Below are positions 2,645 through 9,473 of a stretch of DNA of 11,396 nucleotides, piece by piece. The notes below the pieces were generated by a model. It was not told the origin of the DNA, did not search any database, and was given only the letters and a program-made list of their open reading frames with translations. The DNA comes from a virus (taxonomy: Duplodnaviria > Heunggongvirae > Uroviricota > Caudoviricetes): the IMG/VR virus record IMGVR_UViG_3300025782_000009; one strand, 5' to 3'. The position numbers and the translations under genes were made by a program. The number at the start of each line of letters is the position of its first letter. The stretch's first letter is position 1.

Positions 2645-4113
2645 CTACGTCTTTTCCAGTATTGAGGCTCTTCTTCCTCATCACTGGGTAATCTTAAAAA
2701 CCCACCTTGCCTAAATCTAATCAACGCCTGGCTTGAGCTATCCACATAGTCATCATGTTCCGCGTTAGGGAACCTGGCCATCTCTTCAATTAAATCATCC
2801 GCCCACCGTTTATCTGGTGCCCACACCTTACCTGAATTAAACAAATCCGCCACGCTATTAAGACGTACAAATTTGTCATTTCCACGAGTAGGAGTGTACT
2901 CGCTAACCGGTATTCCCATCTGTCTTAATTCAAACACAAGCGGCGCACCAGCTGCCTTAGCCTCAACAATAAACGCATCAGGCTGCCATTCTTTATATCC
3001 TTCCAGCGCAGCTTTCTTAAGTTGAGGAAACTCCAACTTATCTCTATACGCATCAAGGAGAATAATATGCTTATCTGTTGGGTCTTCATTTAAACTAAAC
3101 ACGCCCCAGGTCGTACAAGCCGAATAGTCAGCGCGTTCCGATTTTGTAAATGCGGTATCCCAACTCTGAATAATAAAATCACAAGGCGGCGGCATCTCAC
3201 TCTTCCATCTCTTCCACGATTCTCGCTTAATAATCGCGCCCTCTTCACCAGTCGGCTGCTGTTGATACTGGGCATTCCACTTATAAACCCCAATCTCTTC
3301 CTTAACCGCCATCAATTCCTTGAGCGGCCAAAACTCAGGCCATAGCGGATTTCCACTTGGCATAATCGCCGGTAACTCAATCACCTCCCAGTCCTCGCCG
3401 GAGGCGTTACGCAAAATTTTTCCCGTTAAGTCTTTATCCGACCACCGGGTCATCACGATTACAATCCTACCCCCTGGTTGTAAACGTTGACGCGGGCCAG
3501 ACGTATACCATTCAAACACGGAATCAAAAACTGTAGGATCTCCCTGGGCTAATCTCGCCTCCTGTTCAGAATGCGGATCGTCAATAATCATTAAGTCCGC
3601 GCCCTTACCAGTCATCGTACCGCCCACACCAATCGCTATATATTCACCTTGAGCATTGGTATTCCACTTACCAGCGGCCTTACTATCAGCAGCCAAAGCA
3701 ATACCAGGAAAGATAGAATCGTATTGCTCGCTATCCACCAAATTACGAACCTTTCTACCAAACCCAACAGCCAGATCGGCAGTGTTACTCGACTGGATAA
3801 CTTTTTTATCAGGATAGTTACCCAGGAACCAGCTAGGCAAAAGGTAAGATGCAAACTCAGACTTAGTATGCCGAGGAGCCATATTGATAATAAGACGCTT
3901 AAGATTTCCATGTACAACCTCTTCAAATTTTTTAGCCATCACAGCGTGGTGTCTGCCGTGCACAAAACCCGGCCACATAAATTTTACATACTCAAGGAAA
4001 TTCGCCTGACACTTCTCCCTTGTCAACGCTTCCTTATATTGCGCCATCTGAGCCAAGAATTTCTCCTGCTCATTCACCGGCAACTTAGCCAATAAATCTT
4101 CAATCTGGGACAT
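2632..4113 (-). CDS. terL: Terminase large subunit
   Basis: Walker A-like INMAPRHTKSE, Walker B LMIIDDPH, motif III/coupling region VMTRW, and RNase H-like nuclease acidic residues in SWDTAF, IVEAKAAG and HDDYVDS. The start is placed at ATG 4113, 6 nt from an AGGA RBS, rather than the track's TTG at 4116. Confidence 0.95.
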   Translation of the reverse strand: MSQIEDLLAKLPVNEQEKFLAQMAQYKEALTREKCQANFLEYVKFMWPGFVHGRHHAVMAKKFEEVVHGNLKRLIINMAPRHTKSEFASYLLPSWFLGNYPDKKVIQSSNTADLAVGFGRKVRNLVDSEQYDSIFPGIALAADSKAAGKWNTNAQGEYIAIGVGGTMTGKGADLMIIDDPHSEQEARLAQGDPTVFDSVFEWYTSGPRQRLQPGGRIVIVMTRWSDKDLTGKILRNASGEDWEVIELPAIMPSGNPLWPEFWPLKELMAVKEEIGVYKWNAQYQQQPTGEEGAIIKRESWKRWKSEMPPPCDFIIQSWDTAFTKSERADYSACTTWGVFSLNEDPTDKHIILLDAYRDKLEFPQLKKAALEGYKEWQPDAFIVEAKAAGAPLVFELRQMGIPVSEYTPTRGNDKFVRLNSVADLFNSGKVWAPDKRWADDLIEEMARFPNAEHDDYVDSSSQALIRFRQGGFLRLPSDEEEEPQYWKRRRAYY

Positions 4114-4501
4114 CAAGTTTCCTAAAATTTATATACACCGGCCGCACACTTCTCTCCATCCCCCGCATCTTCTTTAATACGCCAAGTTTAATAAGCCGCT
4201 CAATTATTTCATGCGTACTCCCCAAACTCCTACTTCCGCGGTACTCCATCACCTCCCTCACAGTCGGCCCATATCCCCTCTTCTTCCAATACTCATCAAT
4301 GAATATAAATACGTTTGCTTGATTTTTTGTCATCTTAAGTTCTAAACACTGTTCATAATTTAGATCACTTCGTTTACTTATCATCTTAGGATTTAATACT
4401 TTTGGATAGTCGCATACCAAACGTTTGGCATGACCCCCCACGAAAGTATTAGATTTGGGCATCGTTTTGCTTTTAACGAATGATAAATTATTACTGTTCA
4501 T
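4100..4501 (-). CDS. LexA-type winged helix-turn-helix DNA-binding protein lacking the peptidase S24 domain
   Basis: MTKNQANVFIFIDEYWKKRGYGPTVREVMEYRGSRSLGSTHEIIERLIKLGVLKK...RSVRP matches the LexA N-terminal pattern LTxRQ...GYPPSVREI...S...HL..L...G.I. The true start is uncertain: there are several in-frame ATGs and no clear SD. The 3' end overlaps the terL start. Confidence 0.75.
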   Translation of the reverse strand: MNSNNLSFVKSKTMPKSNTFVGGHAKRLVCDYPKVLNPKMISKRSDLNYEQCLELKMTKNQANVFIFIDEYWKKRGYGPTVREVMEYRGSRSLGSTHEIIERLIKLGVLKKMRGMERSVRPVYINFRKLDVPD

Positions 4502-4529: not shown

Positions 4530-5258
4530 TTATGTTTTGAGATTGAGGGCATCATCCGTTTTTTCTACTGATCGTTCGGGTGGAATAGTATGCTGGAGTA
4601 CATGGGACTCCGCGCGGTTAAAAGTGGGGGGCGGGGTGGGGTGGGTCTCGCCGGCTGCTGAATTTTCCGCGCCCTGGTTGTCTGGCTCGTTACTTTCCGG
4701 GTGCTCGGTTGATTGTGGCTGCAATTCAGTGAGCAGCGACTCTACATCCTTGGTTGTTACGTCCTCCGCTTGTGCATTCATTAGGGATTGAATCTCAGCC
4801 AGTATCTTGCCGCGTATGTTTTCACTGGAGTGGATTACCTTCGACTCCGTGCGGTGCGTGAATAGACTTACCTCAGTCATTGTGCCGATTGTTTTACTAG
4901 CCTGGAGTTTAATCGCCGGGGAAGTGTTGGGGTTTAGCAGCAGTTCCACCATGGTTTGAACGCTTAAAGCCCTCAAAGATTCGGAGTCGTAATATTTCAA
5001 AGCCTCCTTGGATGCTTCTATGGCATTGATTGCAGATTGGATATTATCTTGAGCCTTCAATTTACTCGCCTTCACTGATACGGTTCTTGGGTTTCCCTTG
5101 CTCTTATATGCTCTGCGGTATGCTTCCGAACCAGTGCATTCTCCTAGAGTAATCTCCTGAACGAACTTCTTTTGCTTATGTGTAAGACCTTTAGTAGCAA
5201 TTAGAGGATTAATAATCTTTTGTTCGTTTAGGTGTTCTTTTATAGATTGACGGCTCAT
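4530..5258 (-). CDS. terS: Terminase small subunit
   Basis: LTHKQKKFVQEI...SEAYRRAY...ASKL...IQSAI matches the N-terminal HTH of phage small terminases. It has a GGAG RBS, is the first gene of the operon upstream of terL, and has an acidic/Pro-rich disordered tail. Confidence 0.8.
   Translation of the reverse strand: MSRQSIKEHLNEQKIINPLIATKGLTHKQKKFVQEITLGECTGSEAYRRAYKSKGNPRTVSVKASKLKAQDNIQSAINAIEASKEALKYYDSESLRALSVQTMVELLLNPNTSPAIKLQASKTIGTMTEVSLFTHRTESKVIHSSENIRGKILAEIQSLMNAQAEDVTTKDVESLLTELQPQSTEHPESNEPDNQGAENSAAGETHPTPPPTFNRAESHVLQHTIPPERSVEKTDDALNLKT
4626..4645 (+). other. Potential G-quadruplex-forming tract GGGGGGCGGGGTGGGGTGGG inside terS
   Basis: Four G-runs (6, 4, 4, 3) separated by single-nucleotide loops, read directly. 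On the coding strand it encodes THPTPPP. Confidence 0.55.
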
Positions 5259-5293
5259 TTAAAACTACTCCGCTTCGCTGATAACAAGCCCGA

Positions 5294-5322
5294 ACTGTAC
5301 CAGAACAAAACCCGAAAAGCAA
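5294..5322 (-). promoter_or_regulatory. sigma70-like promoter for the terS-terL-portal operon
   Basis: The minus strand reads TTGCTT-N17-TACAGT, with a TGn extended -10 (TGG TACAGT). The -10 lies about 35 nt upstream of the terS ATG. Confidence 0.55.
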
Positions 5323-5338
5323 ACGCCGTGCCAGTGAA

Positions 5339-5367
5339 TATTGCAAGGGCTAATAATCCATGCAATA
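5339..5367. promoter_or_regulatory. Palindromic operator-like site 1: TATTGCA-N15-TGCAATA
   Basis: Perfect 7-bp inverted repeat. A second copy with identical spacing is at 5426-5454. Confidence 0.55.
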
Positions 5368-5379
5368 GGTTTTACCTAT
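5365..5379. promoter_or_regulatory. Palindrome ATAGGT-TTT-ACCTAT between the divergent promoters
   Basis: Perfect 6-bp inverted repeat with a 3-nt spacer, overlapping the right arm of site 1. Confidence 0.35.
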
Positions 5380-5410
5380 CAACTCCCGATTCTCAGTGAA
5401 AAAATACAAT

Positions 5411-5438
5411 TAGACAAGGTAAACATATTGTATAGAAT
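5411..5438 (+). promoter_or_regulatory. Strong sigma70-like promoter for the small-ORF array
   Basis: TAGACA-N16-TAGAAT, each 5/6 to consensus, with an A-rich UP-like tract upstream. It lies about 45 nt before the ATG at 5484. Confidence 0.65.
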
Positions 5439-5454
5439 AAACGTTAATGCAATA
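5426..5454. promoter_or_regulatory. Palindromic operator-like site 2: TATTGTA-N15-TGCAATA, covering the -10 and predicted start site of the rightward promoter
   Basis: Same half-sites (one mismatch) and same 15-bp spacer as 5339-5367. Confidence 0.55.
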
Positions 5455-5483
5455 CGCAGAAAACAACGACAGGAGCTAACAAC

Positions 5484-5744
5484 ATGACACAACACCAGTG
5501 GAACACCGGCAGACAATACGACCAATATGGTCAAAGGATGATCGCAACAGTGACAGAGGAAGGAATACAGTTTTCAGACCTCTCCCGGCACATTGATGGA
5601 CTAATCCCGCTTGGCGCGTATATGCGAGGCTCAGACCTGGACAAGCGCACCATTGAAGATTTAGTAATGTTCAACTACGACCAGGGCAACTACACCGGCA
5701 ACAACAAAACGCTAATTTGGCAAGGTCTACTGATGAGCCGTTAA
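5484..5744 (+). CDS. Small hypothetical phage protein (NTGRxY...GQR type); the last codons overlap the hammerhead ribozyme
   Basis: 86 aa, AGGAG RBS at 5471, first gene after the promoter. The C-terminal GLLMSR* is encoded by the ribozyme's stem I 5' arm, core and stem II. Confidence 0.75.
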   Translation: MTQHQWNTGRQYDQYGQRMIATVTEEGIQFSDLSRHIDGLIPLGAYMRGSDLDKRTIEDLVMFNYDQGNYTGNNKTLIWQGLLMSR

Positions 5745-5773
5745 TCGGCGAAACCCCGCGAGGGGTCTAGATC
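5724..5773 (+). ncRNA. Type I hammerhead ribozyme, cleavage predicted after GUC at 5765-5767
   Basis: Stem I 5' arm GGUCUA (5724-29). Core CUGAUGA (5730-36). Stem II GCCG/CGGC with a UUAAU loop (5737-49). Core GAAA (5750-53). Stem III (A)CCCC/GGGG(U) with a GCGA GNRA loop (5753-66). C17 is 5767. Stem I 3' arm UAGAUC (5768-73). All conserved core nucleotides and all three helices are present. Confidence 0.92.
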
Positions 5774-5791
5774 AACTTAGGAGCTTAAACA

Positions 5792-5923
5792 ATGTACTCA
5801 GCACAAATAAACTCATTCGGAAACATTATCGTATGCAAGGGCTGCGAGGTTCGCAACTCATACCGCATTATTTTCACTGGTACTTATAACGAGTGCTTGG
5901 CGCTTAAATTCAAAGGAGTTTAA
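5792..5923 (+). CDS. 43-aa hypothetical protein, first gene downstream of the ribozyme cut (not in the ORF track)
   Basis: MYSAQINSFGNIIVCKGCEVRNSYRIIFTGTYNECLALKFKGV*. It starts in a perfect junction repeat, and its stop lies inside the next one. Confidence 0.75.
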   Translation: MYSAQINSFGNIIVCKGCEVRNSYRIIFTGTYNECLALKFKGV

Positions 5924-5926
5924 ACA

Positions 5927-6175
5927 ATGAACTACATCCCAAAAACCGCATTAAAAGATATTACCGAAAAAATGAAAGATGGCTACGACCTGGGGCTCGC
6001 ACTGTTCTCGGTTTCAATCCATTACGCGATTGATCGCCAGGAGCTGCGCGAGGCATACGATAGAAAATTAAAACGTGATGAGCTTTTGTTTATTGCATCA
6101 AATGCACTGCTCGCCCTTGGCATGGTGTCGGCTTTTCTTTGCCCCGTGTTCTTTTACCTTGCCGCCAGGGGTTAA
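5927..6175 (+). CDS. Small hypothetical protein with a predicted C-terminal transmembrane helix
   Basis: 82 aa with a junction-repeat RBS. Hydrophobic stretch LLFIASNALLALGMVSAFLCPVFFYLAA. Confidence 0.75.
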   Translation: MNYIPKTALKDITEKMKDGYDLGLALFSVSIHYAIDRQELREAYDRKLKRDELLFIASNALLALGMVSAFLCPVFFYLAARG

Positions 6176-6177
6176 CA

Positions 6178-6435
6178 ATGAACCAGGTAGAACTAGAAAC
6201 CGGAGCATTCACTCTTACTCACTCGCCAGGACGTGCGCCAGTAGATACAACTGGAGATCTATTTGGAACGCAGAGCCAACTAGAAATTAAAACGCTGCAA
6301 GCATACGCGCCGCAGCTGTTCCACGCGCTTAAGGACGTTCTAGCCCTGCTAACAAACCCGGACGCAGAGCCGGAGGACGCAGACCAGATTACCGCGAAAA
6401 TTCAACAGATATTAAACCAAATCGAAGGAGCTTAA
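6178..6435 (+). CDS. Small hypothetical protein resembling the phage HTPGPW...AAPELLEAL family
   Basis: The start is reassigned to ATG 6178 in the junction repeat (the track starts at 6139). 85 aa with THSPG near the N-terminus and QAYAPQLFHALKDVL. Confidence 0.7.
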   Translation: MNQVELETGAFTLTHSPGRAPVDTTGDLFGTQSQLEIKTLQAYAPQLFHALKDVLALLTNPDAEPEDADQITAKIQQILNQIEGA

Positions 6436-6438
6436 ACC

Positions 6439-6735
6439 ATGAAACAATTTTCACTTGATTACGCGATACACAACGCAAAATTCCCGGACGGAACTAAGAA
6501 CACCGAGCCAGTATTAAACCAGGAGCAGCAGGAGGCAATTCTCGGCATTATCGGGAAAAGGTGCAGACAACCAACCAAGGAAAGATTAGCCCGCCGCTTG
6601 GCACTTCCCTTGGCATTGTGGGAGAGATACGGCATTTATTCCCGCATGATTATTGAAGATCAATCAGCGTATTACATTTGCGGACAATCCTGGCATGATG
6701 AAATGAGAACACTGCGGGAGTGCATACTCAAATGA
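6439..6735 (+). CDS. Hypothetical phage protein with a C-terminal YxxGQ(S/D)(W/Y)xxExRTxR-type motif
   Basis: 98 aa with a perfect junction-repeat RBS; ends YICGQSWHDEMRTLRECILK. ATGA-coupled to the next gene. Confidence 0.75.
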   Translation: MKQFSLDYAIHNAKFPDGTKNTEPVLNQEQQEAILGIIGKRCRQPTKERLARRLALPLALWERYGIYSRMIIEDQSAYYICGQSWHDEMRTLRECILK

Positions 6736-6926
6736 ATAATTTAATAATCGCCTACCATGCAAAATCAGATTTGCGCGGGTGGTCGGAGGTTTGCCGTTAT
6801 CCCGTTGACTGGGAAGGATGGCACGAGTTCGACCGTTCCATGATCGCGGAGTTGCTGCAAACGGGTTCGCAAGTAGTGACCTGCGGGTGGAATATGTACC
6901 AGGTAGTTAAGGAGGCTAAAAAATGA
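6732..6926 (+). CDS. Trp-rich small hypothetical protein
   Basis: 64 aa from ATG 6732, which forms an ATGA overlap with the upstream stop. The track's start at 6720 is less likely. Confidence 0.65.
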   Translation: MNNLIIAYHAKSDLRGWSEVCRYPVDWEGWHEFDRSMIAELLQTGSQVVTCGWNMYQVVKEAKK

Positions 6927-7084
6927 ATCACACCGAACGCGATTACATCCAAGCCGGATTCGACTTTGAACGCGGACGAATTCAGGTGGATATTTTGCGC
7001 CTAATGATCGAATCGGAACGCATAGAAAACCGCCAGGAGGCACGCCGACTAATCGACCAGGGACGCGCAGAGGCACGGCGATAA
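6923..7084 (+). CDS. 53-aa Arg/Glu-rich hypothetical protein (not in the ORF track)
   Basis: MNHTERDYIQAGFDFERGRIQVDILRLMIESERIENRQEARRLIDQGRAEARR*. AGGAGG RBS and an ATGA overlap. Confidence 0.75.
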   Translation: MNHTERDYIQAGFDFERGRIQVDILRLMIESERIENRQEARRLIDQGRAEARR

Positions 7085-7090
7085 AGCACC

Positions 7091-7131
7091 GTTAAAGCCT
7101 TCTAACGAGGGTTTTAACCGGGCATTTGCCC
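7091..7131 (+). other. Twin stem-loop intergenic RNA element upstream of an RBS
   Basis: A 12-bp stem GTTAAAGCCTTC/GAGGGTTTTAAC (two G-U pairs, TAAC loop), one unpaired C, then GGGC-ATTT-GCCC. No U-tract follows. The G-U pairs work only on the + strand. Confidence 0.55.
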
Positions 7132-7155
7132 CAACAACTAAAAGGAACTTAAACA

Positions 7156-7428
7156 ATGAAAACCAAAAAATTTACATTTCACGCAGACCCCGGACACGGA
7201 TGGCTAGAGGTCGAATTTTCCGATTTGGAGGAGCTCAACATCCAGGAAAAAATCAGCGGGTATTCATTTGTTCGCGGTAATAAAGTTTATTTGGAGGAGG
7301 ACTGCGATGCTTACCTATTCATGGAAACCGCCAAGAGTAACGGATGGACTATCAATATTCAAGAGAAGTACCAGGAGAACACGCCGATTCGCAACTACCA
7401 AAATTATCCAAAATTTATAGGAGCTTAA
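7156..7428 (+). CDS. Conserved phage hypothetical protein (DPGHGWL...YLEEDCD type)
   Basis: 90 aa. The motifs HADPGHGWLEV, ISGYSF and VYLEEDCDA are ones I recognise in small phage/MGE proteins of unknown function. Junction-repeat RBS. Confidence 0.8.
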   Translation: MKTKKFTFHADPGHGWLEVEFSDLEELNIQEKISGYSFVRGNKVYLEEDCDAYLFMETAKSNGWTINIQEKYQENTPIRNYQNYPKFIGA

Positions 7429-7431
7429 ACC

Positions 7432-7614
7432 ATGACAACAACACAAATGAACGAGTACCAGTTGAACGGGTACGCAAACCGCAGAGAGTATTTGGAGAGC
7501 TTGTGCGAGGAGTACGACCGCACGATTGTCTACACCCTGGCATCCGTCCTGGGAGCCTCTGAGGACTTTGATGGATTAATCAGCAGCTTAGAGGACTACT
7601 GCGAGGAGTACTGA
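7432..7614 (+). CDS. Small acidic hypothetical protein (GYxxRxxYL...EDFDGL type)
   Basis: 60 aa with a perfect junction-repeat RBS. Acidic C-terminal half. Confidence 0.78.
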   Translation: MTTTQMNEYQLNGYANRREYLESLCEEYDRTIVYTLASVLGASEDFDGLISSLEDYCEEY

Positions 7615-7621
7615 GCCGCCC

Positions 7622-7674
7622 GCCCGGACACGCGCCGGGCATTTTCCCGCCCCAGGGTTCGCCCTGGGTTTAAT
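7622..7674 (+). terminator. Tandem GC-rich hairpins, probable (leaky) intrinsic terminators
   Basis: GCCCGG-ACACGCG-CCGGGC followed by ATTTT (7622-7645), and CCCAGGG-TTCG-CCCTGGG followed by TTTAAT (7651-7674). The U-tracts are short. Confidence 0.55.
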
Positions 7675-7706
7675 GGTGTAGTGACTGAAATTATTAAGGA
7701 GCTTTT

Positions 7707-7844
7707 ATGTGGATAGTTTATTGGATGGAAAAAGATTTAGCCGGGGAATTTTTGCAGCACCGGAAATTTGACAACTACCAGGGCGCACGGGTTTTCGCAC
7801 GTTTAAAACGCGGGCGCGTAGAAAAACGCCTTGCATTTCAATAA
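7707..7844 (+). CDS. 45-aa basic hypothetical protein (not in the ORF track)
   Basis: MWIVYWMEKDLAGEFLQHRKFDNYQGARVFARLKRGRVEKRLAFQ*, with AAGGAG 5 nt before the ATG. Confidence 0.65.
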   Translation: MWIVYWMEKDLAGEFLQHRKFDNYQGARVFARLKRGRVEKRLAFQ

Positions 7845-7902
7845 TGGAATAGTGGCTGAAAGAAACAAAAATGATTACAGAAAATGAATTAGGAGATCAA
7901 AA

Positions 7903-8100
7903 ATGAAAAAATTTTTCGTAACAATGGTTCGAGTTGAGCACATTGTTTATCGCATAGGTGTTGTGGCAAACAATCAAGATGAGGCAGAGGAGTTGGCACA
8001 AGAGAAGTGGGATGAAGGAGACATTGATTTAGGCACTGGCGAAGTTGTGTATGGTGAAGAATTTATTAATTACGTTGAAGAAATGGGAGAAGCAAAATGA
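7903..8100 (+). CDS. Small acidic protein, DpnD/PcfM-like pattern
   Basis: 65 aa with an AGGAG RBS. MKKFFVT...IGVVANNQDEAEELA fits the MKxFxV...VxVEAxxxEEA pattern of that family; recognised by eye only. Confidence 0.6.
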   Translation: MKKFFVTMVRVEHIVYRIGVVANNQDEAEELAQEKWDEGDIDLGTGEVVYGEEFINYVEEMGEAK

Positions 8101-8276
8101 AAAAATACCAAGTGTGCGTAACGATTACTTACGTTGATTATGTTGATGTAGTGGCTGAGAGTGTAAAAGATGCTGAGCTAAAGATTCGCGAACAAATAGA
8201 CTTGGGCGCTATCAACTTCTACAACGAGTGGTCTCCTGAAGTGGCTTGCGAGGCTTTTGAGGTTGAGACTGAATGA
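8097..8276 (+). CDS. 59-aa acidic protein, apparent paralog of 7903..8100 (not in the ORF track)
   Basis: MKKYQVCVTITYVDYVDVVAESVKDAELKIREQIDLGAINFYNEWSPEVACEAFEVETE*. ATGA overlaps at both ends and a GGGAG RBS. Confidence 0.72.
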   Translation: MKKYQVCVTITYVDYVDVVAESVKDAELKIREQIDLGAINFYNEWSPEVACEAFEVETE

Positions 8277-8470
8277 ACTACCAACGCATCCGATTGGATA
8301 CTTGGCTGAGAACCTATGCCCTATTCCCCGAGGAGTACGGGCACTGGTTCGACACGCTAGAAGGTCTTAAAAAAAGTAAATCTGTTACATTTACCCTTAA
8401 GCCAGAGGCTAATACTACTGGCACTGAGGTCTCAATTACACTGGACTACCATGCTAATACCGCCCATTAA
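8273..8470 (+). CDS. Hypothetical protein
   Basis: 65 aa, ATGA-coupled to the upstream gene. No recognisable motif. Confidence 0.5.
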   Translation: MNYQRIRLDTWLRTYALFPEEYGHWFDTLEGLKKSKSVTFTLKPEANTTGTEVSITLDYHANTAH

Positions 8471-8666
8471 AAATAAATCCGTATTCGTTATTTACATTGT
8501 CGCGCAGGATGATGGTGTAGTGACTGCAAGTTCTGATTTTATTGGTGACAATTTAGATGTTAGAAGGGTCGGCTTGGAGGCTTTAAATTACCTCCACGCC
8601 GCATCCATAACTGAAGAAAACAATCTGTACGTCAATAATGTAATCAACTCACTTCAAGTTCAGTGA
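8451..8666 (+). CDS. Hypothetical protein, last gene of the rightward array
   Basis: 71 aa with a weak GGA RBS. It overlaps the previous gene by 20 nt and the convergent primase gene by 18 nt. Confidence 0.55.
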   Translation: MLIPPIKNKSVFVIYIVAQDDGVVTASSDFIGDNLDVRRVGLEALNYLHAASITEENNLYVNNVINSLQVQ

Positions 8667-9473
8667 CCTGAGAAGTGACTGCCCACTCTTAAAAGTACCA
8701 TGTTTCTGATGATGATCGTTGAAATCGTAGCCAACTGTATCGCTAATCCAGTAAGGGAGTCCTATATCCTTTGCTGTTTTTTCGCCTGTATTGGATGCGT
8801 CATTGTCCGCAATTACAAATCCCTTGCCGATATGCTTCGCAACTTTAGCCATGTTGTGCGCGGAGAAACAAACGTAGATTTTGTATCTGTATTTAAAAGA
8901 CTTGAGCACTTCCCGAATACTAAGTGCAGTGGCGTATCCCTCGCAGAATATATTTTGCCCCTTGTTATCGAATATAAAAGTGGCTCCAGAAGTCCGCTGT
9001 CCAAACAAGAATTTCTTTTGCCCGTCCTCCTGGATGAGCTGGCATCCGACCAGTGCGCCGTCTAGTCTCATTGGTATTACCAGGATAGCTTTGCCGTCCT
9101 TGCGCCATACATTTCCCTCCTCGTCCTTAAATCCCTTGCTCTCCAAATAATGATGGTGTAGTGGCTCACATTGGTTGATGATCCAGGCTGCTTTGCTTGC
9201 TGCCAGTCTTTGATGGTGTAGTGTCTGATCGTGTACTGCCTTTGCTTCCCGCGCCATTTGAGTCAGGTTAATTCCAACAGTACTATCAGGTTTCCATACC
9301 GATACTTCAGTATCAGTGGCATGGTTCTGCACCAGCCCATAGTTGCCCATAAACTTAACTGCCCCGTTCTTTTTATGCGGGTGATCGTTTGTGGGATAGC
9401 GAGTCCACCTGCCAAGTGGTGGCGTAGTTTCAATGAGTATGCCGTGTGCCCGTGCAAAGTTAACGAAATCCAT
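8649..9473 (-). CDS. TOPRIM-domain DNA primase (TraC/P4 alpha-like)
   Basis: TOPRIM motifs IFCEGYATALSI and VIADND, a GALVGCQLI..DGQKKFL segment, and an N-terminal GRWTRYPT..HPHKKNG domain. AAGGAG RBS; directly downstream of the helicase. Confidence 0.85.
   Translation of the reverse strand: MDFVNFARAHGILIETTPPLGRWTRYPTNDHPHKKNGAVKFMGNYGLVQNHATDTEVSVWKPDSTVGINLTQMAREAKAVHDQTLHHQRLAASKAAWIINQCEPLHHHYLESKGFKDEEGNVWRKDGKAILVIPMRLDGALVGCQLIQEDGQKKFLFGQRTSGATFIFDNKGQNIFCEGYATALSIREVLKSFKYRYKIYVCFSAHNMAKVAKHIGKGFVIADNDASNTGEKTAKDIGLPYWISDTVGYDFNDHHQKHGTFKSGQSLLRSLNLK

Follow-up and report, generated by a model that had tools for sequence, protein, structure and literature searches.

A type I hammerhead ribozyme overlapping the end of a small phage gene, probably a constitutive processor of a polycistronic early message

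A phage operon contains, between its first and second small genes, an element (positions 5724-5773, plus strand, as all features below unless indicated) that, judged by its sequence, is a real and complete type I hammerhead ribozyme. We propose that it acts as a constitutive processor of the polycistronic early mRNA, whose consensus lends stop codons to the genes placed in front of it, and not as a translation sensor, a reading to which we assign a probability of about two in three. Positions refer to the window, i.e., the whole analysed stretch of 11,396 nucleotides, which belongs to a contig of 11.7 kb from an uncultured tailed phage; related loci carry L numbers.

The 5' strand of stem I (5724-5729) pairs with 5768-5773 through 6 bp, one of them G-U, and it is followed by the catalytic core CUGAUGA (5730-5736), which fits the core consensus of Perreault et al. 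2011 (PMC3088659). Stem II (5737-5749) comprises 4 bp (5737-5740 with 5746-5749) and the loop UUAAU (5741-5745). The core GAAA (5750-5753), whose A5753 pairs with U5766, leads into stem III (5753-5766), with 5 bp (5753-5757 with 5762-5766) and a tetraloop. The predicted cleavage site GUC/U lies after C5767 (5767-5768), the canonical UH position by the hammerhead consensus, and the 3' strand of stem I (5768-5773) would provide the first six bases of the predicted 3' product. Applying the core criteria of PMC3088659, we have found all the bases of a type I core (C3 U4 G5 A6 N7 G8 A9, G12 A13 A14, A15.1-U16.1, H17) in 5730-5736, 5750-5753, U5766, and C5767. None of the three helices has a mispair beside the core, and the open helix is stem I, as in the type I topology.

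The hammerhead goes beyond chance, since 110 of the 114 distinct sequences recovered in a first scan of viral contigs, where only core and loop letters were searched, complete the whole fold, i.e., they also have stem III, the UH site, and exactly 6 pairs in stem I. Among five orthologs, two-sided changes were found in three pairs: two pairs of stem II are altered on both sides, and stem III, which reads CCCC/GGGG in the window versus CCGC/GCGG in L004 and L152, also shows compensatory changes. Stems I, II, and III were 99-100% paired in a 47-row family alignment, with many two-sided changes (255 cells), in rows that had been pre-filtered for pairing and thus do not lend independent support to the helices. 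The unconstrained fold of 5700-5800 yielded z = -0.53, and therefore the folding energy by itself does not mark the ribozyme.

In Rfam the window falls below every gathering score, and its sole match is a partial one to Hammerhead_3 (26.1 bits vs 48.5); no match to Hammerhead_1 (RF00163) is listed for the window, and RAGATH-1 (RF03152) yields none at E ≤ 1. The element resembles Hammerhead_1 in its GUC site and in its type I topology, with an open stem I and closed stems II and III, but it scores below that gathering threshold and lacks the distal part of stem I with its internal loop. It shares with RAGATH-1 the type I arrangement, a short stem I, an A-rich 5' stretch, and a phage-like context, but RAGATH-1 requires an extra 5' hairpin and the window fails its model.

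Its 6-bp stem I, its flanking As, and its loop consensus make the window ribozyme a typical member of a widespread compact subfamily. A looser second scan and other loci enlarged the set of the first scan to a family of 295, in which stem I has six pairs in 260 members and a G-C closes the helix. An unpaired A stands 5' of stem I in 243 of these 260, as the conserved A5723 does in the window, and As on the 3' side, represented here by A5774 and A5775, are present in 234/260 and 205/260. Loop II follows the consensus U-N-A-N-U/G, with the U found in 59 and the A in 57 of the 60 members of an unbiased subset. These conserved features suggest a tertiary contact of A5723 and A5774/A5775 with loop II. 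We have found no description of such a minimal contact (unpaired A, AA, loop II U-N-A-N-U/G) in the literature examined. Copies in cellular genome assemblies look alike.

Gene 1 (5484-5744) encodes a protein of 86 aa, and its last six codons (GLLMSR) and its stop lie inside the ribozyme. As an earlier note on this DNA had read, the gene runs from stem I across the core into the 5' strand of stem II as GGU CUA CUG AUG AGC CGU UAA, its UAA (5742-5744) is located in loop II, and the predicted cut precedes the ATG of the next gene, at 5792, by 24 nt. The translation of gene 1 overlaps the ribozyme physically, and therefore a terminating ribosome must briefly unfold stems I and II. The stop falls in loop II because this UAA is the first in-frame stop in that frame. 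The same note had suggested checking whether gene 1 homologs lacking the ribozyme end earlier, and in fact they do: the ribozyme-free gene 1 of L007 ends with TWE-stop and is immediately followed by another gene, while other homologs also terminate shortly beyond the conserved Trp. Among the gene 1 homologs compared, the LLMSR C-terminus is found only in P0001, the ribozyme-carrying one. Gene 1 has 136 relatives at E ≤ 0.001, and the model of its product (pLDDT 94.5) contains four strands and a helix, with the lowest confidence in the ribozyme-encoded tail; it has no fold match in the PDB, and its nearest neighbors in BFVD are uncharacterised phage proteins.

Gene 2 (5792-5923) encodes a conserved small phage protein of 43 aa, with 25 homologs, 124 viral loci, and 16 invariant columns. 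It was overlooked by the gene caller in L004-L006. Neither gene has a match in PHROGs, Pfam, or PADLOC, nor anything usable in Atlas, and neither matches a PDB fold; in particular, there was no defence or anti-defence match. The link to abortive infection suggested for this locus finds no supporting evidence, since neither gene matches a known family or fold.

Both genes belong to a rightward array of small genes that starts at 5484. A putative sigma70-type promoter (-35 TAGACA, -10 TAGAAT; 5411-5438) with 10/12 consensus matches faces the array; it is the top-scoring site within 5100-8700, and its region is also found ahead of the array in L004, L007, L136, and L152. The leftward genes encode the terminase large subunit, whose best annotated relatives are 54-57% identical, a LexA-type DNA-binding protein, and the terminase small subunit. 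The gene for the LexA DNA-binding domain (4100-4501, minus strand) is flanked by the two terminase genes, an arrangement also found in relatives. The Shine-Dalgarno (SD) sequence AGGAG of gene 1 (5471-5475) is a copy of a phage junction repeat, and the SD of gene 2 (AGGAG, 5779-5783), five bases beyond stem I, belongs to the same repeat. Copies of this RBS-start repeat are found at 5471, 5779, 5914, 6426, 7143, and 7419, and it begins most of the array genes. The gene order of the relatives appears shuffled at these repeat junctions. Ribozyme junctions are tightly packed: minus the ribozyme body they have a median length of 17 nt, similar to the 20 nt of other junctions.

The orthologs provide a natural series of junctions around gene 2, in which stop positions are counted from the first core C (position 0). 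In the window, L001, and L004, the ribozyme, its leader, and gene 2 follow gene 1, whose stop is at +12. In L333 this cassette stands behind an unrelated gene of 75 aa that enters in another frame and ends at +11 with a UGA in loop II, and in L152 it stands behind a third gene, which has its own stop at -9, ahead of stem I. Since one cassette is found behind three unrelated genes, it appears to have been joined to the last codons of different genes, the ORF then running to the first in-frame stop. Both independent cases of reading into the cassette terminate in loop II, and the depth of overlap among the orthologs ranges from none to 20 nt, so that the overlap architecture is not conserved. 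In L136, gene 2 lies directly behind the promoter without any ribozyme, which is also missing in the close relatives L007 and L144; the overlap of ribozyme and upstream gene is optional among close relatives. Of 60 distinct regions upstream of gene 2 homologs, only 3 have a hammerhead in this slot.

Other structures also appear in this slot. L144 (1461-1479) and L153 carry a plain 7-bp hairpin without a U-tract between the same two genes as L333, and L155 (1432-1483) carries, before its gene 2 homolog, a type II hammerhead, a circular permutation with a CCCC/GGGG stem III that is not listed by Rfam. Other recurrent hairpin-like elements lie 60 nt upstream of the gene 2 homolog in L193/L194 and in L154/L197/L206; those tested among the recurrent elements before gene 2 homologs gave no Rfam match.

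The family follows a rule on stop positions. Among the 226 members with a clear upstream ORF, 219 terminate between -20 and +14: the stop lies at -20 to -7 in 114, within stem I in 41, at the UGA of the core in 46, and in stem or loop II in 18, with none deeper. No ORF that reads into the ribozyme passes stem II (0/105 vs 27.6 expected from random entry frames), and after a dereplication that removed relatedness only in part, with ORFs called mechanically, the figure was 0 observed beyond stem II against 24.3/96 expected (log10 P about -13). ORFs terminating in GAAA or stem III were also missing (0 vs about 5 expected), though such stops still precede the cut. A search for hidden read-through or fusion ORFs with alternative start codons found none. 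The simplest cause of the absence of ORFs past stem II is selection against cutting coding sequence; this absence fits with a family that cuts in vivo, and it would constitute indirect evolutionary evidence of it.

A stop codon sitting in loop II might suggest a designed termination site, but the loop consensus U-N-A-N-U/G itself holds a stop triplet. A purpose-built stop was rejected, since 145 of the 182 ribozymes with an upstream ORF that ends before loop II also contain the triplet, a sample enriched for UUAAU by the first search pattern, and since the upstream stop of the orthologous L152 cassette lies ahead of stem I. A triplet that is common even when it is not reached would be there for structural reasons and used when needed.

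Thus, we favor the following sequence of events. The promoter would give rise to a long early message, in which the hammerhead would cut after C5767 without requiring any signal. The predicted 5' product, of about 320 nt, would contain only gene 1 and would end at the stem III hairpin with a 2',3'-cyclic phosphate, and the predicted 3' product would start with a 5'-OH and six stem I bases, followed within a 24-nt leader by the standard RBS repeat and then by the remaining small genes. RNA ends of this kind (5'-OH, hairpin) give little access to 3' exonucleases and to 5'-monophosphate-dependent decay, and therefore both pieces could be stabilised independently; the likely benefit would be separately stable messages, an idea that goes back to Perreault et al. 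The ribozyme and gene 2 would move as a cassette that becomes joined to the final codons of various upstream genes. When the join removes the native stop, the ORF would extend to the first in-frame stop on offer in the consensus, which has a UAA in stem I, a UGA in the core, and a UAA or UGA in loop II, and joins carrying the ORF past stem II to the cut would be purged. A ribosome finishing gene 1 would unwind stems I and II and, by estimate, halt short of stem III. This brief unwinding would lower the folded fraction and may slow or time the cut, probably as a modest and tolerated side effect. That a plain hairpin or a permuted hammerhead can take its place agrees with a structural role in processing.

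Several known systems resemble parts of this scheme. Perreault et al. 2011 (PMC3088659) described hammerheads between small genes of phages and prophages, reported cleavage of clustered ones in vitro and in E. coli, and proposed that they cut long polycistronic transcripts into mRNAs of gene or operon length. The window ribozyme shares with them the core consensus, the position between small phage genes, the existence of clustered relatives (four in L169), and the idea of transcript processing, but it is present in a single copy and has no apparent pseudoknot. Stop codons within the ribozyme and a subfamily with 6-bp stem I and a U-N-A-N-U loop II are not described in the passages of PMC3088659 consulted. 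In the group I introns of T4, according to reviews, an ORF that loses its stop extends into the ribozyme structure, a phenomenon named 'core creep' (PMC3073962, PMC3984707), and an in-frame stop excludes ribosomes from the remainder of the ribozyme (PMC3073962). The extension to the next in-frame stop and the variable C-terminal residues added are common to both systems (PMC3073962, PMC3984707), but the introns splice and have a demonstrated effect of translation, whereas the ribozyme considered here would only cleave and lies between genes. The glmS ribozyme also cleaves itself upstream of a start codon and leaves a 5'-OH product, but it is gated by a ligand and triggers decay (PMC6765202), while no ligand-binding part is seen here.

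Among the alternatives, an unlikely one is a family-wide gating by translation, in which the ribosome traffic at the upstream stop blocks or helps the cut without any helix sequestering the SD, so that cleavage would report whether the upstream gene is being translated. The ribosome could either unfold stems I and II or clear away upstream RNA that pairs wrongly with stem I, a weak helix of 6 bp. Counted from the first base of the stop, the ribosomal helicase reaches about 7 nt further. In 210/226 members the stop is at -13 or deeper, within reach of this unwinding site, and therefore a terminating ribosome nearly always contacts stem I; no stop is deeper than loop II. However, the tight packing of the junctions accounts for this closeness equally well, and the variable depth of overlap, even among orthologs, also argues against gating. 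On its 5' side the ribozyme has no spacer that would protect it, as a regulatory use would also predict. The predicted folds show competition for stem I, whose probability is 0.04-0.38 in the window, L004, and L333, but it is also low with shuffled upstream RNA (median 0.011), so that it reflects the folding model. As to the ribosome acting as a folding chaperone at this locus, the low stem I probability in the fold of the whole 5' transcript is therefore uninformative. Termination is, in addition, brief relative to the cleavage times of hammerheads. The T4 introns offer a precedent for gating (PMC3073962, PMC3984707), and a literature search carried out mostly outside subscription journals found no paper on translation control of phage hammerheads. 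We consider it equally doubtful, in general terms, that compact phage type I hammerheads sit on or against the upstream stop because terminating ribosomes gate the cut, so that processing would track the state of translation.

It is rather improbable that the ribozyme is a near-neutral passenger, i.e., a junction cassette that spreads by recombination at the RBS repeats, cleaving, maybe slowly, with little gain to the phage, so that selection only removes harmful placements. Its patchy distribution around gene 2 and the junction repeats that flank the modules agree with this possibility. Nevertheless, the compensatory changes of stems II and III among the five orthologs point against it, as does the fact that the slot has been filled independently by a type II hammerhead in L155 and by a plain hairpin in L144 and L153, as if an end that is structured or processed were needed there. 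In addition, no mobility gene is found nearby.

The earlier note had proposed that an extended stem I sequesters the SD of gene 2. A pairing of CUAA (5712-5715) with UUAG (5777-5780) is possible on paper, but it comes at a cost of +1.3 to +2.1 kcal/mol and has an ensemble probability of ≤0.03. The run of four pairs is whole only in the window; its third pair is broken in 4/4 orthologs, and no two-sided change was found. In 47 family rows the extension columns are 45% and 34% paired, versus 32-36% for the slid background and 99-100% for the true stems, and the flank-to-flank duplex energy (-4.28) is the same as that with permuted partners (-4.29, sd 0.12). CUAA is also present in the ribozyme-free homolog of L007 as part of two gene 1 codons. 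A residual signal was detected in two orthologs even though their upstream genes are unrelated: in this register, L333 retains 5/7 scattered pairs (P 0.023) and L152 retains 4/7 (P 0.19), but at a cost of +7 to +8 kcal/mol. Thus, on energy, conservation among orthologs, family background, and the ribozyme-free homolog L007, the extension, including its 5' strand CUAA as a structural part, was rejected. A weak alternative hairpin (5767-5770 with 5777-5780) covers the same two SD bases (5779-5780) once stem I is open, and these are mostly free in the predicted 3' product, but the hairpin is short of one pair in L001 and L333. In the family, the SD-like motif starts at a median of 10 nt beyond stem I and overlaps it in 1/123 members, and no conserved, stable helix covers the downstream SD. 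The switch built on this extension, in which the shut-off of host translation, for example in abortive infection, would lead to cleavage and release of the SD, is therefore very improbable even though the overlap of gene 1 with the ribozyme and the in-frame stop inside the structure are real, since the SD is an ordinary junction repeat outside stem I in 122/123 members and neither gene has a family, defence, or anti-defence match.

What phage hammerheads are for has been asked since 2011 (PMC3088659), and PMC6765202 still lists it as unknown; this locus does not settle it. It provides, however, a natural allelic series for a clean test, since one ribozyme with gene 2 exists with stops at +12, +11, and -9, or with a hairpin, a type II hammerhead, or nothing in the slot. 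If translation gated the cleavage, this would be a new form of control of phage gene expression and a natural family of translation-gated self-cleaving RNAs with hundreds of members, SD sequestration being excluded in any case; we favor the plain reading of a constitutive processor.

Related elements also occur in clusters. In L169 (989-2212), type I hammerheads occupy four junctions in a row around a gene 2 homolog, and the depth of the upstream stop varies among them. The family members of L169 reach 28.3 and 25.5 bits against Hammerhead_1 (threshold 34), and one of them scores 30.7 bits for RAGATH-1. Arrays of 5-7 type I hammerheads, with 6-8 pairs in stem I, were also found in contigs of gammaproteobacterial metagenome-assembled genomes (L344, L351, and L360), which are probably phage DNA.
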